64,000 nucleotides of DNA from Anaerolineae bacterium (GTDB lineage Bacteria > Chloroflexota > Anaerolineae > Epilineales > Epilineaceae), in NCBI GenBank assembly GCA_029262755.1, contig JAJCYU010000008.1, positions 114 through 64,113 of the forward strand. Direction: 5' to 3'. The position numbers and the translations under genes were made by a program. Positions 38,552 to 62,051 of the stretch are shown one piece after another. The notes beneath the pieces are model-generated. The model was not told the origin of the DNA. It did not search any database and saw only the letters and a list, made by a program, of their open reading frames with translations. The stretch's first letter is position 1. Each line of letters opens with the position of its first letter.

Positions 38552-39726
38552 CGATCCGTCCCGTGTGACGCAGAGACCGGGGCGCTGAGAGGGAAGAATC
38601 GGCCGGCGATGCACGGGAGCAGGCCGGGGCCGTTCATGCCCTGGTAACCGCGGCGGCCGGCGGCGGTTGCATGGCAGGCGCGCTCGCGCAGCATGGCGGC
38701 GGTGATCGTGACGCCGTGATCTCGTTGGACGGCCCTTTCGTGCAGGCCGTAGGCGTCCGGTGACGTGCAGGGGGCGTCGGCGGCGCGTTGGGAGAACGGG
38801 GCTTCGTCCGCGCTTTGGTCGATCCACGCGCCGAGCTCTTGGAAGCACAGCGTCCGGCCGTCTTCGAGACGGACGGAGCGGGCGAGGCTGAGGACGACGT
38901 CGCTATCGGTGAAGCAGCGGACGTTCGGGAAGGCGGTTTCGGCGCCGTGGCAGGGGGACCAGCCGCTGGCCATGGCGTGTTCCAAGACGACAACCTCTGG
39001 GGGCGCGCCGATGATCACGTCGCCGATCGTGGGGTCGCGGCCCGCGCAGTCGGCCGGTGCGGGCCACACGCCGTCGGGGTGGACGTTGCCTTGGGCGTCG
39101 AGGACCGCGAGGAGATCGATGCAGGTGCCGTCCGCGGCGCAGTAGCGCAGCGAAAGGCGCAGCGGGATGATCGGGTCCGCCAGGCGGCCGGTCGCGCGGA
39201 TGGCGGCACCGAGCGCGGGTTGCTCGTCGTCGACCAGGGCCCACGCGCCTTCGCCGAGCGGGCCGAGCAGTGCGTGCTCACCAGGTGCTAGTGGGCCGCT
39301 GGACCAGAACGCGGTGCTCGCGGAGCGCAGCGTCGCGCCGCCGTTCGTGAGACGGATGGCTGCGCCGGTGGCGGGGCCCAACTCGGCCGGGTGGAAGCCA
39401 TCGTCGTCGAGAATCACGTCGTGGACGGCTGTCGGAGCGGCGGCGCGCCACGACAGGCCCGCACCGGTACCGTCCACGCCCGTCGCGTCTAGCCAGACGC
39501 GCACATCTTCGCAGCACGAACCGCCGCACTCGACTGGTGGGAGCGCACCGTCCGGAAGCTCGCCGTTCGAACGTTCTTCGGCCGTCGAGAGGAACGTGCG
39601 GGTCGCGCCGTCCACGGGTTCCCTGACCGATTGCGCGTTGACGGGACTCGGGTTACTGTGCCCGGCAAGCAACGTCATCCATACCAACAAGCCCAAACCA
39701 AACCTGCGAATCAAAGAGGTGGCCAT
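38548..39726 (-). CDS. Secreted Cys-rich hypothetical protein
   Basis: Signal peptide MATSLIRRFGLGLLVWMTLLAGHS. AAAGGA RBS. About 14 Cys. Confidence 0.55.
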   Translation of the reverse strand: MATSLIRRFGLGLLVWMTLLAGHSNPSPVNAQSVREPVDGATRTFLSTAEERSNGELPDGALPPVECGGSCCEDVRVWLDATGVDGTGAGLSWRAAAPTAVHDVILDDDGFHPAELGPATGAAIRLTNGGATLRSASTAFWSSGPLAPGEHALLGPLGEGAWALVDDEQPALGAAIRATGRLADPIIPLRLSLRYCAADGTCIDLLAVLDAQGNVHPDGVWPAPADCAGRDPTIGDVIIGAPPEVVVLEHAMASGWSPCHGAETAFPNVRCFTDSDVVLSLARSVRLEDGRTLCFQELGAWIDQSADEAPFSQRAADAPCTSPDAYGLHERAVQRDHGVTITAAMLRERACHATAAGRRGYQGMNGPGLLPCIAGRFFPLSAPVSASHGTDR

Positions 39727-40014
39727 CCCAACATCCTTTCTCAAAGCGGGTGTTTCAAGCTTCAAAACGATCGTGCTTAGAGCGTAGGGAAGGCGCGTTG
39801 CAGGCATATCCCACGGTGCTCCCACGAAGGAATGGGGGCTTCGGCAAGCGCTCGGAAGAGAGTCTTTAAGATTTCTTATGTTATTGACACGTTTTGCTCG
39901 GTCGTGGTACCCTGCGCGGAGCATCCGCGCGTCAACGGATAGCAAGCCCACGTCGCGCGGGATCGTCCGGACTCGTGCATTCGGACGCCGCGTGACATCA
40001 AGGAGGTTGGTCGG

Positions 40015-51568: not shown

Positions 51569-53250
51569 GGCGGCGCTTCGGAGCGGTGGTCAAGGCAGTA
51601 GCAGGGGCGGGGCGAGCGAGCGGGGTTGCGCGTTGGCGGCGCATGTCGCGCTCGGAGCGGGCGCTGCGATCCGGTCGGCCGCGTCCCTCGCGCCCGCGAC
51701 CCTCGCGCCCGCGACCCTCGCGCCCGCGACCCTCGCGACCCTCGCGACCCTCGCGTCGCTCGCGATCGGTAGCGTCCGCCGCGCTTTCGACCCTCGTCGT
51801 CGGTCTAGCGGTGTTTGCTACGTTCGCAGCGGGCAGTAGCGGAGGCGGTGGCAGTGGCGGCGGAATTCGCGCTGAATTTGGAGGCGGTGGCAGTGGCAGT
51901 GGCAGCGACGGCGGTCGTGACGGTGGTCGCGACATCGGCCGCGACTCAGTGGCGGGGCGCATCCGTGCACTGTGGGCGGTGTCCGGCGTGGCGGCGCAGG
52001 AGGCGCCGGCGTTGGCCGGTCTCGTCGTCGCGATGCCGGATGGGTCGACGTTGGAGGCCTGCGTGGCCTTGGATGCGGACGAGATCAGCGGCGAGGAGTT
52101 GCTTGCGCGGGCTGGTGTGGTCGTCGGCGCGCGACGGACGCCGTTGGGGGCCATGGTCTGCGCGCTGGACGGACAAGGCTGCGATCATCCGGTGGAGCCT
52201 TGCTGGTGCGAGTGTCGCAGCCTGGGCGAAGACTGCCGTTATTGGGCATACCACGTGCGCGAGGAAAGCGGCTGGCGCTACGCGCCGCTCGGCCCGAGCG
52301 CCCGCCGGGTCGGCCACGGTGACGTGGATGGCTGGGCATGGGGCGCCGGCACCATCGCAAGCGGCGCCCAGCCGCCCGAGCGAACGTTTGCTGAGCTATG
52401 CGCGGCCGGTGCGACGGGCTCAGCGCCGGGTGGTGCAGCGCGTGGCGCACCAGGCGGTGCGACGGCAGGTGCGAGCGGATCGAACGCGCAGGCAACGCAG
52501 GCGGCGGTCGCTTCGCAGTCAGCGCGGGCGACGGCGGCAGCGCGGTCGGGCGGCGCCGCGACGCGGCCGGCGGAACCGGGGGGCGGTCGCGATGGGCAAA
52601 CTGGACGTGCTGGAGATGGGAGAAGGGAGGATGGTCGGAGCGGAGAAGGCCCGACGGAGGTAGGCGGTGCGGGTTCCTCGAATGGAACGGTGGTCGCAGA
52701 TTCGAGCCTGAGCGCGGGGTCCGGCGACGGAATGAGCGCTGGGACGCGGGACGCAACGGGTGCGGGCGCCCCCGGGGGCTCCGGGGGCTCCGATGGCGGC
52801 GGGGGACCCGACGCGGGAGCGAGCGACGGGGTGGATCTGGATGGCGCGGACGCGCAAGGGCCGCCGGCGATGGGCGCCGGTGCGTCGAGCGGCCGTACGA
52901 TCGCGACGCCGGGTGGTGGCGCGGGATCGGCGGGCGGGCGCACGGGTGATGCAGATCGCGCCGGCGACGGAGGTGCGGCGCCGGGGGCCGGCGCGTCTCG
53001 CGGCGGCGGTCGCGGGGACGGCGTGGCGGACGGTGGGATAGGCACCGCGGGTGGCGATCTTGAGCGCGGTGACTCTGACGGTGACGATCGCAATGGTGAC
53101 GATCGCGACGGTAACGATCGCATTGGTGACGATCGAGACAGCGGCGGCTTCCTTAGCGTGGGAGCCGCGGCGCGATCCGATGCGCTCTTTGGGGTGCTGG
53201 TCGCCGGGCTGCTGATCGCCGGGCTTGTTTGGTTGCGGCGGACGGTTTGA
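51565..53250 (+). CDS. Second DUF4430-like domain protein with extensive low-complexity tandem repeats and a C-terminal TM anchor
   Basis: EPCWCECRSLGEDCRYWAYH is the paralogous motif. SRPRPSRPRP and NGDDRDGNDRIGDDRD repeats. C-terminal helix LFGVLVAGLLIAGLVWL. ATGA overlap with the upstream gene. Confidence 0.6.
   Translation: MRRRFGAVVKAVAGAGRASGVARWRRMSRSERALRSGRPRPSRPRPSRPRPSRPRPSRPSRPSRRSRSVASAALSTLVVGLAVFATFAAGSSGGGGSGGGIRAEFGGGGSGSGSDGGRDGGRDIGRDSVAGRIRALWAVSGVAAQEAPALAGLVVAMPDGSTLEACVALDADEISGEELLARAGVVVGARRTPLGAMVCALDGQGCDHPVEPCWCECRSLGEDCRYWAYHVREESGWRYAPLGPSARRVGHGDVDGWAWGAGTIASGAQPPERTFAELCAAGATGSAPGGAARGAPGGATAGASGSNAQATQAAVASQSARATAAARSGGAATRPAEPGGGRDGQTGRAGDGRREDGRSGEGPTEVGGAGSSNGTVVADSSLSAGSGDGMSAGTRDATGAGAPGGSGGSDGGGGPDAGASDGVDLDGADAQGPPAMGAGASSGRTIATPGGGAGSAGGRTGDADRAGDGGAAPGAGASRGGGRGDGVADGGIGTAGGDLERGDSDGDDRNGDDRDGNDRIGDDRDSGGFLSVGAAARSDALFGVLVAGLLIAGLVWLRRTV
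51684..51760. repeat. 15-bp (CCTCGCGCCCGCGAC)n and 9-bp tandem repeats within a coding region
   Basis: Direct reading; encodes SRPRP repeats. Confidence 0.7.
53080..53138. repeat. 15-bp tandem repeat (GGTGACGATCGCAAT-like ×4) within a coding region
   Basis: Encodes NGDDRDGNDRIGDDRD. Confidence 0.7.
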
Positions 53251-56200
53251 GGGCAGGGGGCGCGGGCGCAGCGGAGGGATCGATCGCGCCGAGGCGAGCG
53301 GTGGCGCGATCGTCAGGCGGCTGGGGTGCAGGTCTGCCGCTGGTGGGCGTTTCTGTGGTCGCGGCAGCGGCCATCGCGTGGCCGTTCTGGGTGCCGCTGG
53401 CGGCGGGGGCGGCGGAGCGCTTGGCGGGCGAGGGCGGCTCGGCCCTCGGGCCCTACCTGGACGGCGCCGGCGCCGCCGCGACGGCGTCTTGGGCGGGGCC
53501 GTTGCTCCTCGTCCTGTGCGCGCTGGTGCTCGTGCGGGAGGCGGCGGTAGGCATGGGGCCCAAGGCGGTGGCCTTGCTTGGGGCGCTCGCCGCGCTGATG
53601 GCGGCTTTGCGCGTGGTCGAGACGATCGTGCCCGGGCCGGGCGGCTTTTCGCCGGTCTTCGCGTTGATGGTGTTGGCCGGCTACGGCCTCGGCGCGCGCT
53701 TCGGCTTCCTTGCCGGCGTGCTCGGCATGACCGTCTCGGCACTGGCGACGGGCGGCGTCGGGCCGTGGCTGCCCTATCAGGCCATCGCGGCCGGTTGGGT
53801 CGGCGGCACGTCGGGGCTGTTGCCGGGCGCGGGGGGCGAAGGTAGAAGACGCGACGTCTCACGGCGCCGGCTTCTTTGGCTCGCAGCCTTCGCCGCTGCC
53901 TGGGGCTTCGGCTATGGGCTGGTGCTGTCGCTCTGGGGCTGGACGTGGCTGGAGGGTGGCGCGGCGGCCGGGCCCGAGGGCGCGTTGGGCTGGGTCGCAT
54001 CACGTGCGGCGATGGCCCGCTTCGGCCTCTTCTACCTCGGCCTTTCGCTGGGCTGGGACGCATTCCGCGCGGTCGGTAACGCGGCGTTGGTCTTGGCCGT
54101 CGGCGGCCCCGTCCTCGCAGCGCTATGGCGCATGAAGCGCTGGCTCTCGGTCGGCGTGGTGGAGGGCGATGGGGTCGACGGGAGCGACGTGGTCGACGAG
54201 AGCGACGTGGTCGACGAGGGCGATGTGGTTATCGAGAGCGACGTGGTCGACGAGAGCGACGTGGTTGTCGAGAGCGACGTGGTCGTCGCAAGCAACGCGG
54301 TCGACGGGAACCGCGCGGTCGACGGGAACCGCGTGGTCGACGGGAACCGCGTGGTCGGTGCGAGATACAACGAACCGAACGCGAGTAGCGCGGTCTCCGC
54401 TCTTTCCGGCCCGGCGCCCGCGGTCGTGTGGGTCGCGTGGGTGGTTGCGGTGGCGGTGGTGGCTTCGGTGACGCGCAATCCGTGGATCTTGGCGTTGGCG
54501 TGGCTCGTGGTCGAGGTCGTGCGGGCGGCGGTGGCGCGTGGGGCTGCGGCGCCGTTTTCGGTGGCGCGGATGGCGCCGTGGATGATCGGGCTCGCGGCGG
54601 TGTACAACCTCGTCTTGTCGCGCTCCGGGGAGACCGTATTGCTGCGGGTGCCCGCGGCGTGGCCGGTGGTCGGGGGCGCGTGGACGGGTGAGGCGTTGGT
54701 CTACGGGGCATCGACGGGATTGGCGCTGGTCGTGTTGGTGGCGGCGTTTGTCACGTTGCAGGTGGCGGTCTCGCCGCGGGATCTCGTTGCCTTGGCGCCG
54801 CGGGCCTTTGCGGGGCCTGCGATCGTGACCGCCGTTGCGCTCAGCTGGTTGCCTGCGCTGCACACCCGTTGGAACGAGGCGGCCGAGGCGCGCGCGCTAC
54901 GCGGTTTCGGGGAGCGAGGACCGCGGGCGTGGCTGGCCCTGCTCGGGCCGGTGATCGTGGGCTCGTTGGAGCAGGCGACGGAGCTGGCTGAGTCCATGGC
55001 GGCTCGTGGTTTGGTGGATGCGCGTGCACCGTCCTTGGCCCGTCGATGGGCGGCCGGCGTTGGTCTGGCGATCGTCGCCGTCGGGTTGCTCGGGCCATGG
55101 GCCGAGAGCCTGGTACGGTGGGCGATGATCGGTGTGGGAATCGCGTTGCTGGCAGCGGGGCTGCGCGGCGGTGCGGGAGCCGGGCCCCGTCCCACCCGAC
55201 TGCGCGGCGGCCGGTGGCGCAAGCGCGACGTGGTGGTGCTTGCGGCCGTGCTTGGTGCGCTGCTGCTCGTGCTGTTGGTGCCCTCGGTGGCCATCGCGAC
55301 GCGGTGGCAGCCCTACCCCCGACTCTCGTGGCCGCCTGCGCCCGCGCTTGCGGTCCTCGCGGTCACGCTACTGGTCGCGCCGGCGGTGGGGGCGCGGTTG
55401 CGGGTGAGAGGGCCGATAGGGCGAGAGACGGGCCGCCGTCCGCGTGGGGCTCGGCGCAAAGCGGAGGGGGAGGGGACGAGGGCGAGCGATGGGCGATACG
55501 CGGAGTCGGCGGGAGGCACAGATAGACGGTCGCGGCTGCAGTCGGAGCGGCTGCTGGCGAAGCGGGTGCAGGCGGAGGGGGTGCAGGCGGCGCGGGTGTC
55601 GCGCGGGTCCGGCGGGGTTGCGACGAGCGTCGAGAGGGCGCTTGGCGATAGGTCGCTTGGCGATAGGTCGGGCGGAGATTGGGAGAGCGCAGAGAAGGCG
55701 AGCGTCGAGACGAAGAGCGTCGAGAGGGCGAGCAGTTACAAGACGAGCGTCGCCAAGCCGAACGTTGGGCTCGGGCCCGAGATCCGGTGGTCTGACGTCC
55801 GCGTACGCTATCCGGCGGACAGTGCGGACAGTGCGGACGGTGCGGACGGTGCGGACGGTGCGGACGGTGCGGACGGTGCGGACGGTGCGGACGGTGCGGA
55901 CGGTGCGGACGGTGTCGGCGGTGTCGGCGGTGCGGATGCCGCGTGGGGGAGCGCCGTCTTGGACGGGGTTGACGCTCGTGCCCTCGCAGGGGCGTGGACC
56001 TGGGTGGCGGGGTCGAGTGGGGCGGGCAAGTCGACGCTGTTGCGGACGGTGAACGGGTTGGTGCCGCACTTTACGGGTGGGCGGATCGAAGGCGCCGTGC
56101 GGGTTGGGGCGCACGATCCGATACGCACGGGGCCGGCGGGCATGAGCCGTGTCGTCGGCTTCGTCGCGGGCGATCCGGAGGCGCGTTCGATCGCGACGCA

Positions 56201-57467
56201 CGTGGCGGATGAGGTGGCCTTTGCCATGGAGCGGCAGGGGTGGCCGCGGGCGCGGATGGAGCGTGAGGTCCGCGCGGCGTTGCATCGCGTGGGGCTGGTG
56301 GGCTTCGAGGCCAGGCGGCTCGCTACGCTCTCGGGCGGGGAACGGCAGCGGGTGGCCGTCGCCGCGGCTATGGCGGCCGGGGCGGAGGTGCTCGTGCTCG
56401 ACGAGCCGACATCGCAGCTGGACGACGAAGCGGCCGCAATCGTGTTGGACGCCGTGCAGCGTCAGGCCGAGGCGGGCGTCACGGTGCTCGTGGCCGGGCA
56501 CCGGGCGGCACGGCTTGCGCCCCGGGCGACACGGGCGCTGAGGCTCGCGCGCGGGCGGGCGGAGATCGTGGATCCGTTGGCGCTCGCAGCGCGAATGGAG
56601 GTGGAAGAGCGAGAGCTGCTGGATGCCGTGCGCGGGGCGCGTGGTCGGGCTTCCGTGAAGACCGTAGATCGCGAGGCCGTGGAAGATGCGGTCGACGGGC
56701 TATGGGGGCGTGACGCGGACAGGTCGTCGCTTCCGCAGGCCGCGGCCCGCGGCGCCGGTGCGTCGTCGCCCGCCGAGGTAGCGGATCGTGATGCGGTCGT
56801 GCTGCTGCGGGACGTGACCTTTGCCTGGCCGGCCGCGGATGGAGAGGCAGAGCGCCTCGTGTTGGATGGGGTGAACCTTCACGTGCGGCCGGGGGAAGTC
56901 GTGGCGTTGGCGGGGGCGAGCGGAGCGGGAAAGACGACGTTGCTGCGCATCGTGCTTGGGCTGCTCGCTCCACGGTCCGGCGACGTGCTCGTTCAAGGCC
57001 GGCCCGTGACGGGAGGCGCCGCGGGCGTGATCGGACGGATCGTCGGCTACGTGCCGCAGCATGCGGCGACGATGATGTTGACCAGCAGCGTTCGCGAAGA
57101 GCTGCGCCTTACGCGCCGCGGCCATGGCCTTCCCGAGGCCGAAGACCGCGGGGCGATCGACGCGTTGCTCGAGCGGCTGAGGCTGGGTGAGCTAGCCGAG
57201 CGCGACCCCCGTGACCTGAGCACGGGGCAGCGGCAGCGGGTGGCCGTAGCGGCTAGCGCCGCGGGCCGGCCGGCGGCGCTGCTATTGGACGAGCCGACGC
57301 GCGGGCTCGACACGGCGGCGCTTGCCGCGGTTCTACGGGAGCTGCACGACGTGGCCGCGGAGGGAACGGCAGTGCTCGTCGCGAGCCATGACCGCCGCGT
57401 CCAGCAGGCGGCGCATCGGATCGTGACGCTGCGCAAGGTCGGCGACGATCTTGGGCTGGTGCGCTGA
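53229..57467 (+). CDS. Single 1412-aa ORF that appears to fuse all ECF-transporter modules: S-component-like membrane domain, EcfT-like transmembrane domain, and two ABC ATPase domains (EcfA-EcfA'), joined by tandem-repeat linkers. Candidate cobalamin ECF importer (CbrT/CbrV/CbrU-like)
   Basis: S-like region: GPKAVALLGALAALMAALRVV...FALMVLAGYGLGARFGFLAGVLG. T-like region: LEQATELAESMAARGLVDARAPS. ATPase 1: GSSGAGKSTLLRTV...LSGGERQRVAVAAAMAAGAEVLVLDEPTSQLD. ATPase 2: GASGAGKTTLLRIV...LSTGQRQRVAVAASAAGRPAALLLDEPTRGLD. There is no in-frame stop for 4.2 kb. The start (TTG at 53229) is uncertain. Confidence 0.6.
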   Translation: MVAADGLRAGGAGAAEGSIAPRRAVARSSGGWGAGLPLVGVSVVAAAAIAWPFWVPLAAGAAERLAGEGGSALGPYLDGAGAAATASWAGPLLLVLCALVLVREAAVGMGPKAVALLGALAALMAALRVVETIVPGPGGFSPVFALMVLAGYGLGARFGFLAGVLGMTVSALATGGVGPWLPYQAIAAGWVGGTSGLLPGAGGEGRRRDVSRRRLLWLAAFAAAWGFGYGLVLSLWGWTWLEGGAAAGPEGALGWVASRAAMARFGLFYLGLSLGWDAFRAVGNAALVLAVGGPVLAALWRMKRWLSVGVVEGDGVDGSDVVDESDVVDEGDVVIESDVVDESDVVVESDVVVASNAVDGNRAVDGNRVVDGNRVVGARYNEPNASSAVSALSGPAPAVVWVAWVVAVAVVASVTRNPWILALAWLVVEVVRAAVARGAAAPFSVARMAPWMIGLAAVYNLVLSRSGETVLLRVPAAWPVVGGAWTGEALVYGASTGLALVVLVAAFVTLQVAVSPRDLVALAPRAFAGPAIVTAVALSWLPALHTRWNEAAEARALRGFGERGPRAWLALLGPVIVGSLEQATELAESMAARGLVDARAPSLARRWAAGVGLAIVAVGLLGPWAESLVRWAMIGVGIALLAAGLRGGAGAGPRPTRLRGGRWRKRDVVVLAAVLGALLLVLLVPSVAIATRWQPYPRLSWPPAPALAVLAVTLLVAPAVGARLRVRGPIGRETGRRPRGARRKAEGEGTRASDGRYAESAGGTDRRSRLQSERLLAKRVQAEGVQAARVSRGSGGVATSVERALGDRSLGDRSGGDWESAEKASVETKSVERASSYKTSVAKPNVGLGPEIRWSDVRVRYPADSADSADGADGADGADGADGADGADGADGADGVGGVGGADAAWGSAVLDGVDARALAGAWTWVAGSSGAGKSTLLRTVNGLVPHFTGGRIEGAVRVGAHDPIRTGPAGMSRVVGFVAGDPEARSIATHVADEVAFAMERQGWPRARMEREVRAALHRVGLVGFEARRLATLSGGERQRVAVAAAMAAGAEVLVLDEPTSQLDDEAAAIVLDAVQRQAEAGVTVLVAGHRAARLAPRATRALRLARGRAEIVDPLALAARMEVEERELLDAVRGARGRASVKTVDREAVEDAVDGLWGRDADRSSLPQAAARGAGASSPAEVADRDAVVLLRDVTFAWPAADGEAERLVLDGVNLHVRPGEVVALAGASGAGKTTLLRIVLGLLAPRSGDVLVQGRPVTGGAAGVIGRIVGYVPQHAATMMLTSSVREELRLTRRGHGLPEAEDRGAIDALLERLRLGELAERDPRDLSTGQRQRVAVAASAAGRPAALLLDEPTRGLDTAALAAVLRELHDVAAEGTAVLVASHDRRVQQAAHRIVTLRKVGDDLGLVR
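54171..54357. repeat. 18-bp perfect tandem repeats (GACGAGAGCGACGTGGTC-like ×6, then GACGGGAACCGCGYGGTC ×3), in-frame in the linker between the S-like and T-like modules
   Basis: Encodes DVVDESDVVDEG... and VDGNRAVDGNRVVDGNRVV. Confidence 0.75.
55815..55935. repeat. 9-bp perfect tandem repeat (GCGGACGGT/GCGGACAGT ×~12), in-frame linker before the first ATPase domain
   Basis: Encodes ADSADSADGADGADGADGADGADGADGADG. Confidence 0.75.
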
Positions 57468-57724
57468 TCACGCGGATTCGTGCGAGTCGCGAGGTGCGTG
57501 GGAAGCGCGACAAGAGGGCGCGCGGGGGCGCGATCGTGCGCGCATGCCGCATTTTCCGAGGCGCACCAGGTAAACAGAACCCGGTGCTTTACCAAGTTCG
57601 GCGGCGTGTTTCCGCGATGAAGCGCTTGCTTGCGACCGTGCCGCTACCGCCAAGTAACCGGTCTGATACGTTCTGTTAACCTCGGAGACGGTATTTTCGC
57701 GCCGCCGCCTCTTATAATGCCTCT

Positions 57725-57852
57725 CGCATCTTGTCCTCACGGCGGGGGCGCCGCCTTCACGGCGCGCCTTCGTCGTTTAAGGCGAAAGTATCGACCCATC
57801 CCGGCGAATGACCCGCTCCTCAACGGGTCGACCGCCGGGATGGGTCTTTTTT
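57725..57852 (+). ncRNA. Candidate small RNA: TATAAT -10 box (57713–57718) followed ~130 nt later by a strong intrinsic terminator, in a locally AT-rich region
   Basis: cttataatgc, then gacccatcccggcg...cgccgggatgggtc + tttttt. Confidence 0.35.
57793..57852 (+). terminator. Rho-independent terminator: 14-bp perfect stem with a nested inner hairpin, followed by T6
   Basis: gacccatcccggcg aatgacccgctcctcaacgggtcgac cgccgggatgggtc tttttt. Confidence 0.7.
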
Positions 57853-58294
57853 CGGCGCAAAACGCGCCGTAGCGAGCTGAGCTCGGCGTGAAATCCCGCT
57901 CGCCGGCGGCCTTGGATCACCCGTGTTTCGGAGACCCGTGGCCATCGTCACGCGGCGCGAATAGGCGGGTCACAGCGCGTAAGAAGCACGTCTCGATACG
58001 CGTCTATATATTATACCGCGATGGCGTGCTTGCCCTCGACGGGTGATCTCGGCTCGGCGTCCACTCCCATCTCGAGACACACCTCCCCGCATTACCCCCT
58101 CGTCGTTTCTTTCCTCACCCTCACCCTCATTCCCACCCTCCATCCGATCGAGCCTGTGCTCCGGTTCCCGTGTTCACGCGGAAGCCGGGTTGCGGCGTTC
58201 GGTCCCCAGCGCGGTGTTCGCGCACCCCATGCCATGTCGCATCGCCCGAGAGGTCTCGGGCGCAAACCGTAGGAGCAAGACCTTCTTCACCACG

Positions 58295-59182
58295 ATGGAT
58301 CGACGTTGGACGTCCACCCCCTCACCCATTCAGGCCCCCACCGTGCGTGACGCCAGCCGGCGCGCACGGTACTTGGGAGCTGCCTTGTCCGTGCTTGCGT
58401 TCAGCCATCTGGCGGCCTGGAGTTTCGGCTCGTTGCCGCATAGCGCCGCCAACGACGCGGCGCGCATCGAGGCCGCCGCGCGTGGCACCGCCGTGGCGAT
58501 GGTTGCCACAGCCATCGCGCCAGCCGGGCCGTCCGGCGCCATCGCGTCAAACGCCGGTCTCGGCGTCTCGGGCGCGGCTAGCACTTCGTCCCTGCCCACC
58601 ACCATCGACATCGCTTGGCTGCCCGACACGGTGCAGGTGTGGGAGGAGCGGCTCGTTGCGGCCGGCGCGCGTTGGCGTGTCGACCCGGCGTTGCTTGCAA
58701 TCGTGATGCTCGTTGAATCCGGCGGCAATCCGGCCGCACGAAGTCCCGCCGGCGCCGTCGGCCTGATGCAGGTCATGCCGGCGACGGCAGGCGATATCGC
58801 ACGACTGCGCGGCCTCGCTGCGCTCTCCAGTCGGCAGCTTGTCGATCCGGAGACCAATATCGAGTTCGGCGCCTGGTACCTGGCGCGGCAGTTGGCCAGC
58901 TTCGGCTCCGCGGACGATCCCGATTGGCAACGCTCGGTGGAGCTTGCGGCCGTCGCGTACAACGGCGGCCCCGGCAGCGCTGCGTCGTGGCAACGTGGCG
59001 GCTACGTGCCCGCAGAGGCGCGTCGATACCGGGTCTGGGTTGGCGGCATGTGGTCCGAGAGGGCCCTGCCGACGTCCCCGACCTACGCACGCTGGCTCGA
59101 CGCCGGTGGCGCCTACCTTGTCGATCGAGCGCGATCCGTGCTCGACCCGGCGAATGGGGGCACGACGTTGGCGAGCGGGTGA
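58295..59182 (+). CDS. Lytic transglycosylase (SLT-domain) with an N-terminal membrane/signal segment
   Basis: VESGGNPAARSPAGAVGLMQVMPATA is the SLT catalytic motif. Hydrophobic LGAALSVLAFSHLAAWSF. AGGAG lies upstream; the annotated ORF extends further upstream through implausible sequence. Confidence 0.7.
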   Translation: MDRRWTSTPSPIQAPTVRDASRRARYLGAALSVLAFSHLAAWSFGSLPHSAANDAARIEAAARGTAVAMVATAIAPAGPSGAIASNAGLGVSGAASTSSLPTTIDIAWLPDTVQVWEERLVAAGARWRVDPALLAIVMLVESGGNPAARSPAGAVGLMQVMPATAGDIARLRGLAALSSRQLVDPETNIEFGAWYLARQLASFGSADDPDWQRSVELAAVAYNGGPGSAASWQRGGYVPAEARRYRVWVGGMWSERALPTSPTYARWLDAGGAYLVDRARSVLDPANGGTTLASG

Positions 59183-59534
59183 GCGTGCGCGGGTGATCGC
59201 ACACGTCACGTCGATTGCGCGTGACACGTTGATCTTGCGCTTTGCGTCGATTGCACGCTTCACGTCGATTGCGCGGCCAACCTGGTCGCCTTCGGCGCGG
59301 CGATCGCCGCAAGCTCGTCAGGCGCTACGGGGGTGAGAGCTGCCTCCGCCGCATCCCCCACCTCCGCGATCGGAGCTGGATCCACCACCGCGCGGGGCGC
59401 GGGCCTTCGGGCTCGCGCCCCGTTTGTTGTTGGGTCGTGCGGGCTAGGCGCATGGACCGGGCACGCGTTCGCGAGGGAGCACGCACGGTCTCACGACTGC
59501 CGGGCAGCCCGCAAGCTGATTCCGCTCCCCCGTC

Positions 59535-62051
59535 CTACTTCGGCCCGTTGGGTCCGTAGCGGTCCAAGAACAACATGCGTGCCGTGAGCGGGATATAGAT
59601 CGATTCCGGCGGCGGTGGGGCGATCGTCGGGATTGCGGTCGGGCGCGTCGGTGCCGGCGTCGGCGTGACGGGCGTTGGGGTGGGGCCGGTTGCGGTCGGG
59701 GTGGGGGTAGGGACCGTCGGCGTGACGCGGGGAGTCGGGCTTGCGGGGGGGAGCAGCGAGGGTAGGAGGTCGCTCCAGCCCCAGGCGATCACGAAGGCGC
59801 CGCCGTCGCGGGTGCCGCGGACGTCGTAGCCGGGCTCGGCGGCAACGAGGTCGGGTGCGCCGTCCGCGTTTAGGTCCGCGATGGCGAGGGCGTCGCCCAG
59901 GCGTAGGTTGGCTTCCAGGCCTTCGCGCAGCGGCCACATCTCCGCGCCGATGGCGTGGGCCCTTCGTAGACGAGGACCCGATGGGGAGCCGGGGACGACG
60001 TAGAGTGCGCCCGCGGCGGGTTGGCGGTCGCGCGACATGTCCGGCGCGCCGACGACGAGCTCGGGGAACGTGTCGCCGTCCAGGTCGCCGGCGGCGAGCG
60101 CGCTGCCGAAGGCCGTGCGAGGACCGGGGGCGTCGGGGAAGGCGGGCAGGTCCTGATGCACGAGCATGGTGCGCGCGTGGTCGATGCCATCTGGGGAGCC
60201 GAAGAGGACGAGCACGTCGCCCGCTTCGCGCGCGCCCGAAACGGACGCGCCGGGCGAGGCGATGACGAGGTCCGCGAAGCGGTCGCGGTCGAAGTCGGTC
60301 GCGAGCAGGCGGCCGCCGAAGTGGCCGTTGCGTTCGGCGGAGCCGGGCAGGTCGTCCACGTCGCGGCTGAGCTCCGTCACGCGATCGACGAGCAAGGTGT
60401 TGGTCACGCCCTCGCCGGCGCTGTAGGCCAGGAGCACGATGCCCGCGCCGCGTGCGCTGCCGGCGATGCCGTCCGGCGCGCCGACGACGAGATCGGCCAG
60501 GCTGTCGCCGTCCACGTCGGCCAGGGCGAGGGTGGTGCCCAGGCCCTCGCTGGCAACCGGGTCGCCGGGGATCGTTTCGGGTTCGCGGTCGAACTGCAGG
60601 GAGCCGACGAGCAACGGGCCGGCATCGAGGCGGCCGGGCAGCACGTAGACGCGGCCCGCACCGTTGCGCCTGGCGACGTTGGCGCCCGGGGCGCCTGCCG
60701 CCAGGTCGTCGATGCCGTCGCCGTTGAAGTCGCCGACCGCGAGGGATGCGCCTAGCCGGTCACCCGGACTGGCCGGGGGGCCGAAGGGGCGAGGCTGTCC
60801 GAGGAGGCCGCCGGCGGCGCCCTCCCACAACCAGAGGCCGCCTGCGTCGTTGCCCGCCCGGTCGGAGCGGGGGGTGCCGATCACGAGGTCGTCGTAGTCG
60901 TCGCCGTTGAAGTCGCCGACGGTCAACACGGCGCCCCATTGCAGATCGACCTCGCTGCCCGGGCTCTGTTGAATGGCGCCGGGGAACGCGCGCCCGCCGC
61001 GTACGACGCTCAGCCAGCCGCCGACCGAGGCCGCCTCGTCGTCTAGGACGGAGGCTACCGCCAGGTCGGGAACGAGGTCGCCGTTGAAGTCGCCCACGGC
61101 CAGCGTCTCGGCGAAGCCCTGCTGGGGCAGCACGGGCCGGCCGACGTCGGTGCGCACGTAGGTGCGCGGGGTCCAGGCGAGGGACCATGCGGCGGCGGGC
61201 CAGCGTGCCACCGCGATCTCGACGGCGTCGAGCAGCGCCGCGTCGTGCAGGGCGCGCTCGTCGGGGACGGCGAAGACCGCAAGCGCAAGGCCCGCCGCCT
61301 GCGCGTCGCGGATCTCGGCGACGTCCTGCTCGGAGTCCAGACGCCCGTCGGCCAGGTCCAGCGCGATGCCCTCAGCGCCGGCCGTGCTCGCCTTGTCCCA
61401 GTCGGAAGGTGTGCGCAGCACGAGCCAGCGATCTGCCGCGGGGAGGCCGGCGGCCAGGGCGGCGAGCGTGCTCAGGTTGGCGGTGGCGAAGCGAACGCGG
61501 TTGCCGGCGCCCGCCGCGGAGACGGCCGCGAGCACGGCGGCCGGGTCGACGCCTTCGCGCAGGTGGAGCGTAAGTGCCAGCGGATCGGCCGGGTCGCCCG
61601 CGGTGGCGGCGAGCGCCTCGGCGAGGCGCGGCACGGTCTCGCCGGCGAAGGCGATGCCGAACCATGCGCCGGCGTCGCAGCGCTCGATCTCGGACATCGG
61701 GCGTTCGATAACGAGGCCCGTGCAATCGGTCGTGCGGTCGAGGGACTCGTCGGCCAGCAGCAGCGGGACGCCGTCCGCGCTGGCGCGCACGTCGAGCCAG
61801 GCGCGGTTGGTTCCCTCGTCGCGCGCGGCGCGTAGGGCGGCTAGCGTGTTTTCCGGCGCTTCGGAGGACAGGCCTCGCCACGCGGACAGGCGCGCGACAT
61901 CCGGATGGTCGCGTGGGCCCGCCGCGACACGGCTGCGCAGCACGGGGGCGAGCATCGCCAGCAGGGCCAGCAGCAGCGCGAAATGAATGGCGCGCAGCGG
62001 CGTACAGCGCGCCGCGGCGAAACGCGGACGGCGCGGGAAGAGGCGGCTCAC
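59535..62051 (-). CDS. Secreted glycerophosphodiester phosphodiesterase (GDPD) domain protein with multiple FG-GAP (integrin-alpha-like) repeats and a C-terminal PT-rich linker
   Basis: GDPD N-terminal region HPDVARLSAWRGLSSEAPENTLAALRAA. FG-GAP repeats VGDFNGDGIDDL, VGDFNGDDYDDL, ADVDGDSLADL, GDLDGDTFPEL. Signal LLLALLAMLAPVL. Confidence 0.75.
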   Translation of the reverse strand: MSRLFPRRPRFAAARCTPLRAIHFALLLALLAMLAPVLRSRVAAGPRDHPDVARLSAWRGLSSEAPENTLAALRAARDEGTNRAWLDVRASADGVPLLLADESLDRTTDCTGLVIERPMSEIERCDAGAWFGIAFAGETVPRLAEALAATAGDPADPLALTLHLREGVDPAAVLAAVSAAGAGNRVRFATANLSTLAALAAGLPAADRWLVLRTPSDWDKASTAGAEGIALDLADGRLDSEQDVAEIRDAQAAGLALAVFAVPDERALHDAALLDAVEIAVARWPAAAWSLAWTPRTYVRTDVGRPVLPQQGFAETLAVGDFNGDLVPDLAVASVLDDEAASVGGWLSVVRGGRAFPGAIQQSPGSEVDLQWGAVLTVGDFNGDDYDDLVIGTPRSDRAGNDAGGLWLWEGAAGGLLGQPRPFGPPASPGDRLGASLAVGDFNGDGIDDLAAGAPGANVARRNGAGRVYVLPGRLDAGPLLVGSLQFDREPETIPGDPVASEGLGTTLALADVDGDSLADLVVGAPDGIAGSARGAGIVLLAYSAGEGVTNTLLVDRVTELSRDVDDLPGSAERNGHFGGRLLATDFDRDRFADLVIASPGASVSGAREAGDVLVLFGSPDGIDHARTMLVHQDLPAFPDAPGPRTAFGSALAAGDLDGDTFPELVVGAPDMSRDRQPAAGALYVVPGSPSGPRLRRAHAIGAEMWPLREGLEANLRLGDALAIADLNADGAPDLVAAEPGYDVRGTRDGGAFVIAWGWSDLLPSLLPPASPTPRVTPTVPTPTPTATGPTPTPVTPTPAPTRPTAIPTIAPPPPESIYIPLTARMLFLDRYGPNGPK

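Follow-up and report, generated by a model that had tools for sequence, protein, structure and literature searches.

Introduction

Regulatory RNAs of Chloroflexota are, to our knowledge, almost wholly unexplored, and our search of the literature on small RNAs (sRNAs) of Chloroflexi found nothing specific. Here we describe a putative sRNA in a 64,000-nucleotide (nt) stretch of contig JAJCYU010000008.1 from an Anaerolineae bacterium (hereafter the window), where it lies in the spacer between an ECF-transporter gene and a gene for a lytic transglycosylase with an SLT domain. Several described groups of sRNAs offer points of comparison. In Gram-positive bacteria, the C-rich-motif sRNAs 6C RNA and RsaE/RoxS carry CCC(C) motifs in their hairpin loops and are represented in Rfam. 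The cia-dependent sRNAs (csRNAs) of streptococci were predicted to be 51-202 nt long, typically consist of two stem-loops with an intrinsic terminator, and are thought to occlude initiation by means of an unpaired anti-Shine-Dalgarno sequence and CAU; their promoters are activator-dependent and carry, immediately ahead of the -10 box, the CiaR direct repeat TTTAAG-N5-TTTAAG, and 2-6 such genes occur per streptococcal genome (PMC3091779). Finally, sRNAs from the 3' ends of transporter operons have been documented (MalH/MicX and OppZ), and among 3'-end sRNAs some have their own promoter (DapZ, MicL) and others are processed (MalH, OppZ, CpxQ) (PMC9438474).

The locus studied here resembles the csRNAs in that its predicted small RNA has a terminator and an unpaired stretch, 5'-CAUCUUGUCCUC, that is the complement of a start codon together with a Shine-Dalgarno sequence, though its CCU is predicted to pair at the base of the first hairpin (P1). 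It also resembles their activator-dependent promoters, having a -10 box, no -35 box and an upstream box with a loose repeat of 10-nt period. Unlike the csRNAs, however, it shows no sequence similarity to them, lacks TTTAAG-N5-TTTAAG in 57655-57712 and in the counterparts of its relatives, places the anti-initiation stretch at the 5' end rather than between hairpins, has one copy per locus instead of 2-6 genes per genome, and belongs to a different phylum. We read the resemblance as one of logic only and not of membership. With 6C RNA and RsaE/RoxS it shares a pyrimidine-rich unpaired motif able to pair with G-rich ribosome-binding sites, but the motif is a 5' tail and Rfam gave no match at E <= 10. 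Like 3'-end sRNAs, the element is on the same strand as an ABC-type transporter gene and directly 3' of it, includes the first terminator and has a seed-like stretch. In contrast to DapZ, whose promoter is inside the coding sequence, its -10 box falls 62-246 nt past the stop codon in all loci, and unlike OppZ it showed no pairing with its own operon. The closest match in overall layout is to classic intergenic trans-acting sRNA genes, which are likewise 100-200 nt long, intergenic and conserved, with a 5' seed, a hairpin and a terminator with a U-tail (PMC9438474); the differences are the missing -35 box and the uncultured lineage.

Conservation of the element in four syntenic loci

Four syntenic instances of the locus were compared, namely the window and the metagenomic contigs L012 (112 kb), L013 (3.7 kb) and L020, in all of which the ECF gene is followed by a long spacer and then by the SLT gene. 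In L012 the synteny is wider and takes in urocanase, prenyltransferase-like and SCO2322-like genes upstream as well as GDPD/FG-GAP and dihydroorotate dehydrogenase genes downstream. Alignment of the spacers revealed two conserved islands within otherwise unalignable DNA. The first consists of an upstream box, a 22-nt variable gap, the hexamer TATAMT, three variable bases (GCC, GGC or CCG) and an invariant run, TCTCGCATCTTGTCCTCACGGCGGGGGCGCC ... GGCGCGCCTTCGTCGTTTAAGG. The core, which spans the -10 box through the end of P1, is closer to the window sequence than are the last 600 nt of either flanking gene (Table 1). A non-coding stretch is thus better conserved than its protein-coding neighbors and is therefore under strong selection, and we consider it very probable that 57725-57852 on the + strand is a selected RNA element.

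An earlier note, made on the window sequence alone, had proposed an sRNA of ~130 nt running from TATAAT to the terminator, an idea that a lack of conservation in relatives would have undermined. Comparison of the four syntenic loci supports the proposal, and the opposite of such a lack was seen, as the core is near-invariant in all of them. A covariance model derived from all four copies found exactly one copy per locus, at 132-164 bits, and gave no other convincing match in the ~250 kb of sequence searched; no paralogs of the RNA were found.

Table 1. Features of the spacer and its neighbors, with the identity of the relatives to the window where it was determined
Feature	Position	Strand	Identity to window	Remarks
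ECF-transporter ORF (open reading frame)	53229-57467	+		S-component, CbiQ-type T-component, two ABC ATPase domains; stop codon 57465-57467
Last 600 nt of ECF gene			69-72%	
Intergenic spacer	57468-58294			827 nt; between ECF-transporter ORF and SLT gene
Mechanical ORF, 90 aa	57468-57740	-		No Pfam match
Mechanical ORF, 80 aa	57630-57872	+		No Pfam match
Upstream box, conserved block	57655-57690		75-83%	
Upstream box, CTGATACGTTCTGTTAACCT	57663-57682	+		Consensus CTGAKACGYKCTGTTAACCT; ~-62 to -43 from predicted start
22 nt between upstream box and -10 box			Essentially none	
-10-like box, TATAAT	57713-57718	+		TATACT in three relatives
Core, -10 box to GUUUAAGG	57713-57783		91-95%	
Pyrimidine-rich 5' tail, TCTCGCATCTTGT	57722-57734	+		Invariant in 4/4 loci; candidate seed
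Predicted sRNA, whole	57725-57852	+		~128 nt in window; ~140-150 nt in relatives
Hairpin P1, CCUCACGGCGGGGGCGCC...GGCGCGCCUUCGUCGUUUAAGG	57735-57783	+		-30.7 kcal/mol; ~19-pair lower stem invariant
Linker, CGAAAGTAT (window)	57784-57792	+		Short; differs between loci, not conserved
Rho-independent terminator	57793-57852	+		14-bp basal stem, internal loop, 6-7-bp apical stem, T6
Linker + terminator			~62%	
SLT promoter (presumed), TTGACG-N16/17-TATAMT	L012 9628-9657; L013 2304-2333; L020 1071-1100			Second conserved island, downstream of terminator
SLT-domain lytic transglycosylase gene	58295-59182	+		Downstream of spacer
Last 600 nt of SLT gene			79-80%	
GDPD/FG-GAP gene	59535-62051	-		Convergent to SLT gene

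It could be argued that there is no functional RNA at this site, only a small protein gene or a chance combination of a TATA box and a terminator. One mechanical ORF (80 aa) does extend across the region, and in the window an ATG overlaps TATAAT. The relatives, however, have CTG in place of this ATG, and between L012 and L013 a 1-nt indel at the tip of P1 puts identical downstream bases in different frames. Because this indel shifts the reading frame, the element is not protein-coding; all three codon positions are invariant, and conservation far above that of the neighboring genes rules out chance. The absence of a functional RNA is thus scarcely tenable. A small-protein candidate was rejected, as neither frame nor start codon is conserved and Pfam gave no match. 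The earlier statement that nothing of at least 60 aa looks coding here was overstated, since mechanical ORFs exist on both strands; they have no Pfam match, and the frame is not kept in the relatives. We conclude that the element is a + strand non-coding RNA and not a peptide gene.

On the opposite strand, the antisense of the tail (57721-57739, -) has the form of a ribosome-binding site and ATG, opening a mini-ORF that reads MREAL* in the window and MREAV* in L012 and extends to 15-17 codons in L013 and L020. A minus-strand RNA or mini-ORF was rejected, since its length varies from 5 to 17 codons and is not conserved, no - strand terminator or downstream gene was seen, and - strand folds are worse. 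We regard the mini-ORF as a by-product of the anti-initiation-region sequence.

Predicted fold of the RNA

For the 129-131 nt that begin just past the -10 box and extend to the T-run, predicted folding energies were -77.5 to -79.1 kcal/mol, and z scores against dinucleotide shuffles were -7.6 to -8.05. All copies were predicted to share one fold, in which a free 5' tail is followed by hairpin P1, a linker that is short and variable, and a terminator hairpin that is long and branched. In the three loci tested, the + strand folded at -77.5, -69.4 and -79.3 kcal/mol versus -73.1, -56.6 and -66.1 kcal/mol for the - strand. P1 forms only on the + strand because its three G-U pairs become C-A on the other.

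The terminator hairpin (-43.0 kcal/mol) has the stem arms GACCCATCCCGGCG (57793-57806) and CGCCGGGATGGGTC (57833-57846), an inner hairpin GACCCG...CGGGTC, and T6 at 57847-57852. The perfect 14-bp stem with its inner hairpin and T6 is present exactly as the earlier note described it, and T-runs of at least T6 occur only twice in the window. Our simple terminator scanner did not report the 57793-57846 hairpin, as its loop rule of 3-8 nt excludes branched stems. U-rich tails follow the hairpin in L013 and L020, and a weaker one in L012. Covariation supports the terminator, in that 8/18 basal pairs (and 1/5 apical ones) changed on both sides while remaining paired. The observed measures were reached in 0-1 of 500 column shuffles, and 95% of cells were paired versus 43-52% when partners were slid.

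P1 shows a different pattern. Its lower stem, which carries the three G-U pairs and a UUA bulge, is fixed, with 19/20 pairs never varying and 100% of cells paired. Only the tip varies, the relatives having 12-13 extra nt in the form of a small GAAAG/CUUUC stem that the window does not have. The 5' tail is mostly unpaired in the fold of every locus.

The invariance of P1 raises the possibility of a protein-binding or titrating RNA, with P1 as the recognition element and no base pairing involved. The ~40 stem nt that are wholly invariant, G-U pairs and UUA bulge included, would be in keeping with such a role, as would the failure to find a base-pairing target, although that search covered ~85 kb only and is a weak negative. 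Repeated short motifs such as the GGA loops of known titrating RNAs are absent, however, and a hairpin-binding protein would leave the equally invariant unpaired 5' tail unexplained, so we think this explanation very unlikely.

Predicted promoter and 5' end

As the earlier note stated, TATAAT is present at its given position, and it is the sole + strand TATAAT in the window. Invariance restarts 3 nt after this box, as expected with transcription starting there, and the usual spacing of ~7 nt after a -10 box predicts a start near 57725-57728. We favor a promoter belonging to the RNA itself because invariance begins just after the conserved -10 box and at the usual spacing, and on balance we lean toward an sRNA with its own promoter. 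Synthesis would then proceed from TATAMT without a -35 box, helped by a factor or by an RNA polymerase contact at the box ~25-45 nt further upstream.

That upstream box is unique in the window even when 3 mismatches are allowed (0 expected), and it holds a loose direct repeat of 10-nt period, CTGATAC / CTGTTAA. It could be an activator site or UP-like site, or part of a longer transcript. A SigB-like or ECF-sigma-like promoter within it was considered and rejected, as the spacing is unfit and the putative -10 is not conserved.

The earlier note had also pointed to an inverted repeat upstream of the TATA box. Such a repeat exists, with arms at 57568-57580 and 57670-57682 that are complementary at 12/13 positions and separated by 89 nt, 1-3 nt away from the coordinates first given. 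As a part of the element it was rejected, being near chance (an equally good repeat arose in ~6% of shuffles of 57468-57790) and not conserved. Its left arm falls in a window-specific stretch of 187 nt (57468-57654) that separates the ECF stop codon from the conserved box, the relatives having 3-83 nt at this place. Within this stretch, 57563-57588 forms a small hairpin (-11.7 kcal/mol) followed by TTTACC.

The distance from the ECF stop codon to the -10 box is 62 nt in L013, ~100 nt in L012 and 246 nt in the window; the upstream box of L013 begins only 4 nt after the stop. No other terminator-like structures were seen between the ECF stop and the hairpin in L012, L013 and L020. As the hairpin is the first terminator after the ECF gene and the L013 box stands so close to the stop codon, the terminator is very likely shared. 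This is compatible with the earlier suggestion that the region could include the terminator of the ECF operon, as the hairpin is the first terminator-like structure 3' of the ECF gene in the loci read. One terminator would probably end both the operon transcript and the sRNA, and operon transcripts reading through would also include the RNA.

This arrangement gives rise to the main alternative, namely that the element belongs to the ECF operon's 3' untranslated region (UTR) without a promoter of its own, either as an sRNA processed by RNase or as an mRNA stabilizer or terminator. The L013 box 4 nt past the stop, the lack of any other terminator-like structure before the hairpin in the loci read and the failure to find a -35 box all support it. 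RNAalifold on the window, L012 and L013 also allows pairing between GGAGNCGG, at the end of the box, and the region around and after the TATA box, including one both-sided change within the -10 hexamer itself (A/T versus C/G), and the L020 version of this pairing is a 7-bp GAGACGG/CCGTCTC. Processed sRNAs from 3' ends are known, including those of transporter operons (CpxQ, MalH and OppZ being examples of processing; PMC9438474). Even so, the 22 nt from the box to TATA are unalignable, and invariance resumes exactly at TATAMT with the right spacing to the body of the RNA; the hairpin around the TATA box is poorly kept in L013; and a plain stabilizing structure has no need of 60 invariant nt that include an unpaired tail. 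We therefore regard a 3'-UTR element as unlikely.

Proposed mode of action and search for targets

The mature sRNA would consist of an invariant 5' tail, rich in pyrimidines and largely single-stranded, followed by the long invariant P1 and the terminator hairpin with its U-tail, and it would act in trans through base pairing. The tail carries CAU at 57727-57729 and is followed by CCUC at 57735-57738; joined to CCTCA (57735-57739), it exactly matches the reverse complement of UGAGGACAAGAUGCGAGA, in which GAGGA (a Shine-Dalgarno sequence), a short spacer and AUG can be read. Because this organism uses canonical AAGGAGG ribosome-binding sites, the CCUC...CAU tail is meaningful as an anti-initiation sequence. 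The tail, 5'-UCUCGCAUCUUGUCCUCA, may mask the initiation region (Shine-Dalgarno sequence and start codon) in at least one target mRNA and so block translation or alter mRNA stability; the ideal target region would read ...GAGGACAAGAUG... We offer this anti-ribosome-binding-site mechanism tentatively. The only match in the window to the reverse complement of the tail is its own antisense strand.

Several observations weigh against these readings. The four sequences represent three lineages only, as L013 and L020 fall in one 90%-identity cluster. A -35-like hexamer was not found 16-18 nt upstream of the -10 box in any of the four loci, and a sigma-70 scan gave no two-hexamer promoter for the sRNA; without a -35 box the 5' end could lie upstream and the TATA box could have been kept for another reason. 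Since P1 does not vary, covariation neither supports nor tests it, and in the predicted fold the CCU of the anti-Shine-Dalgarno sequence is paired at the base of P1. Target scans, which are noisy at high GC content and covered ~85 kb of sequence, gave duplex energies for the seed against the window and against the 20-kb L012 locus that were within the range of shuffled seeds. Start regions of neighboring genes were unremarkable as targets, and pairing with the SLT leader in three loci was not conserved.

The downstream SLT gene and its leader

The second conserved island, downstream of the terminator, has the form of a canonical promoter and presumably serves the SLT gene (Table 1). In the window, its counterpart at 57990-58017 has a 4-7-nt deletion that breaks the -35/-10 spacing and leaves TCGATA...TATATATTATACC, so that the SLT promoter may be weaker or differently organized there. 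Ahead of the SLT gene (58040-58294 in the window), all four loci have a pyrimidine-rich leader of ~280-300 nt with a GC skew down to -0.28 and CU-rich repeats such as TCCTCACCCTCACCC. In the window, CCCTCGTCGTTT in the leader (58097-58108) is nearly identical to CCTTCGTCGTTT in the 3' arm of P1 (57767-57778), and the leaders of L013 and L020 contain repeated TTGTCGTCCTG motifs similar to the sRNA tail. When the SLT leader was tested for duplex formation with the sRNA, only L013 reached significance, and that weakly (z ~ -2).

Control of cell-wall hydrolase genes by riboswitches is classic in other phyla, as in the ydaO/cyclic-di-AMP class. With this background in mind, the element might be a cis-acting leader or attenuator of the SLT gene, in which P1 senses a protein or ligand and the terminator gates read-through. 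The RNA does lie upstream of the SLT gene on the same strand in 4/4 loci, and the invariance of both P1 arms exceeds what pairing needs, as would that of a recognition surface. Against this, the terminator is ~440 nt away from the SLT start, and in L012, L013 and L020 a separately conserved promoter falls in that gap. A single hairpin with a 12-13-nt indel at its tip is too simple for known metabolite aptamers; no antiterminator is evidently conserved, the arms of the terminator varying where P1 does not; and Rfam gave no riboswitch or leader match at E <= 10. A cis-acting role is thus distinctly unlikely. A broader version, in which P1 is a protein or small-molecule sensor and the branched, unusually long terminator a switch for both ECF-operon termination and SLT read-through, is more speculative still and highly improbable. 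If true, it would be a new kind of cis-acting attenuator linking nutrient uptake (a vitamin-type ECF transporter) to cell-wall remodeling in Chloroflexota, and the same transcript could also be freed as a trans-acting sRNA.

Distribution of the element

Rfam 15 gave zero matches in the whole window at the gathering score, and at E <= 10 only chance matches in 57400-58350 (HgcE at 18.9 bits, threshold 50; Sernc389 at 13.5 bits, threshold 74). The earlier note had named an Rfam search as a check, and no family was matched; a scan for tRNA and tmRNA also found none.

Searches with the SLT protein retrieved only two close clusters, which are 68-69% identical. In GTDB species genomes the best SLT protein match was 63%, in a metagenome-assembled genome (MAG) of Anaerolineales (L001) that has neither the synteny nor the RNA. 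SLT homologs P0029 and P0038 are also without synteny, and the covariance model found no copy of the RNA at their loci. Short SLT homologs P0074, P0020 and P0051 lack synteny as well; two of them occupy prophage-like loci and the third an unrelated one. An exact 23-mer of the core had no match in JGI metagenomes or viral contigs, and the gapped pattern ATCTTGTCCTCA-N30-60-TCGTTTAAGG retrieved only two metagenomic candidates (L018 and L019), rejected as spurious because of their lower GC, lack of a stem and position within an ORF. In a protein search with the ATPase half of the ECF protein, generic ABC matches dominated and orthologs were not among the matches listed.

The nearest named relatives of the SLT protein are from Chloroflexota MAGs (Anaerolineales, Caldilineae and Ardenticatenales). 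The distribution of the RNA family appears narrow, and so far the RNA has been seen only in a narrow, uncultured, high-GC lineage that probably belongs to Chloroflexota and is represented by metagenomes alone.

Two contigs from the same assembly as the syntenic L012 carry short SLT homologs from the same protein clade (L015 4001-4789 and L017 4001-4753; 49-62% identical) in prophage-like loci beside terminase genes, and the L015 locus also carries a portal gene. This suggests that SLT genes of this family pass between chromosome and phage within the lineage.

The surrounding locus

The window has an overall GC content of 68.6%. The earlier note had described the spacer as an AT-rich island with a sharp drop in GC. 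The drop is real but modest, amounting to an ordinary intergenic dip: GC is 0.61 in 57560-57860 and 0.63 in the whole spacer, compared with 0.686 for the window (standard deviation 0.053 in 200-nt windows) and 0.70-0.77 in the flanking genes; when 200-nt windows are ranked by GC, the flagged region falls outside the lowest 40. GC reaches its minimum in the window (down to 0.51) at 39700-39990, a stretch that looks like a divergent promoter region: it has a consensus TTGACA, and an AAGGAGG ribosome-binding site stands ahead of an ATG at ~40016. It could be used as a reference for canonical signals in the same organism.

The ECF-transporter ORF is a single mechanical ORF of 1412 codons in which the S, T and both A components are apparently fused. 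It includes two tandem repeats in inter-domain linkers, one at 54162-54357 (an 18-nt unit, 10.9 copies, ESDVVD-like) and one at 55815-55936 (a 9-nt unit, 13.6 copies, GAD-like). Between the convergent SLT and GDPD/FG-GAP genes, a strong GC-rich hairpin of 14 bp with a weak T-tail (59392-59423) is probably a terminator common to both.

Implications

The RNA matches no described family, but it is built like an ordinary regulatory small RNA of bacteria. It would thus stand as a new sRNA family of conventional design, which challenges no current concept. As a short non-coding gene whose conservation exceeds that of the protein-coding genes beside it, the locus is a solid, testable sRNA candidate for Chloroflexota, and it may represent a case of a transporter-operon 3'-end sRNA beyond the enterobacteria and vibrios.

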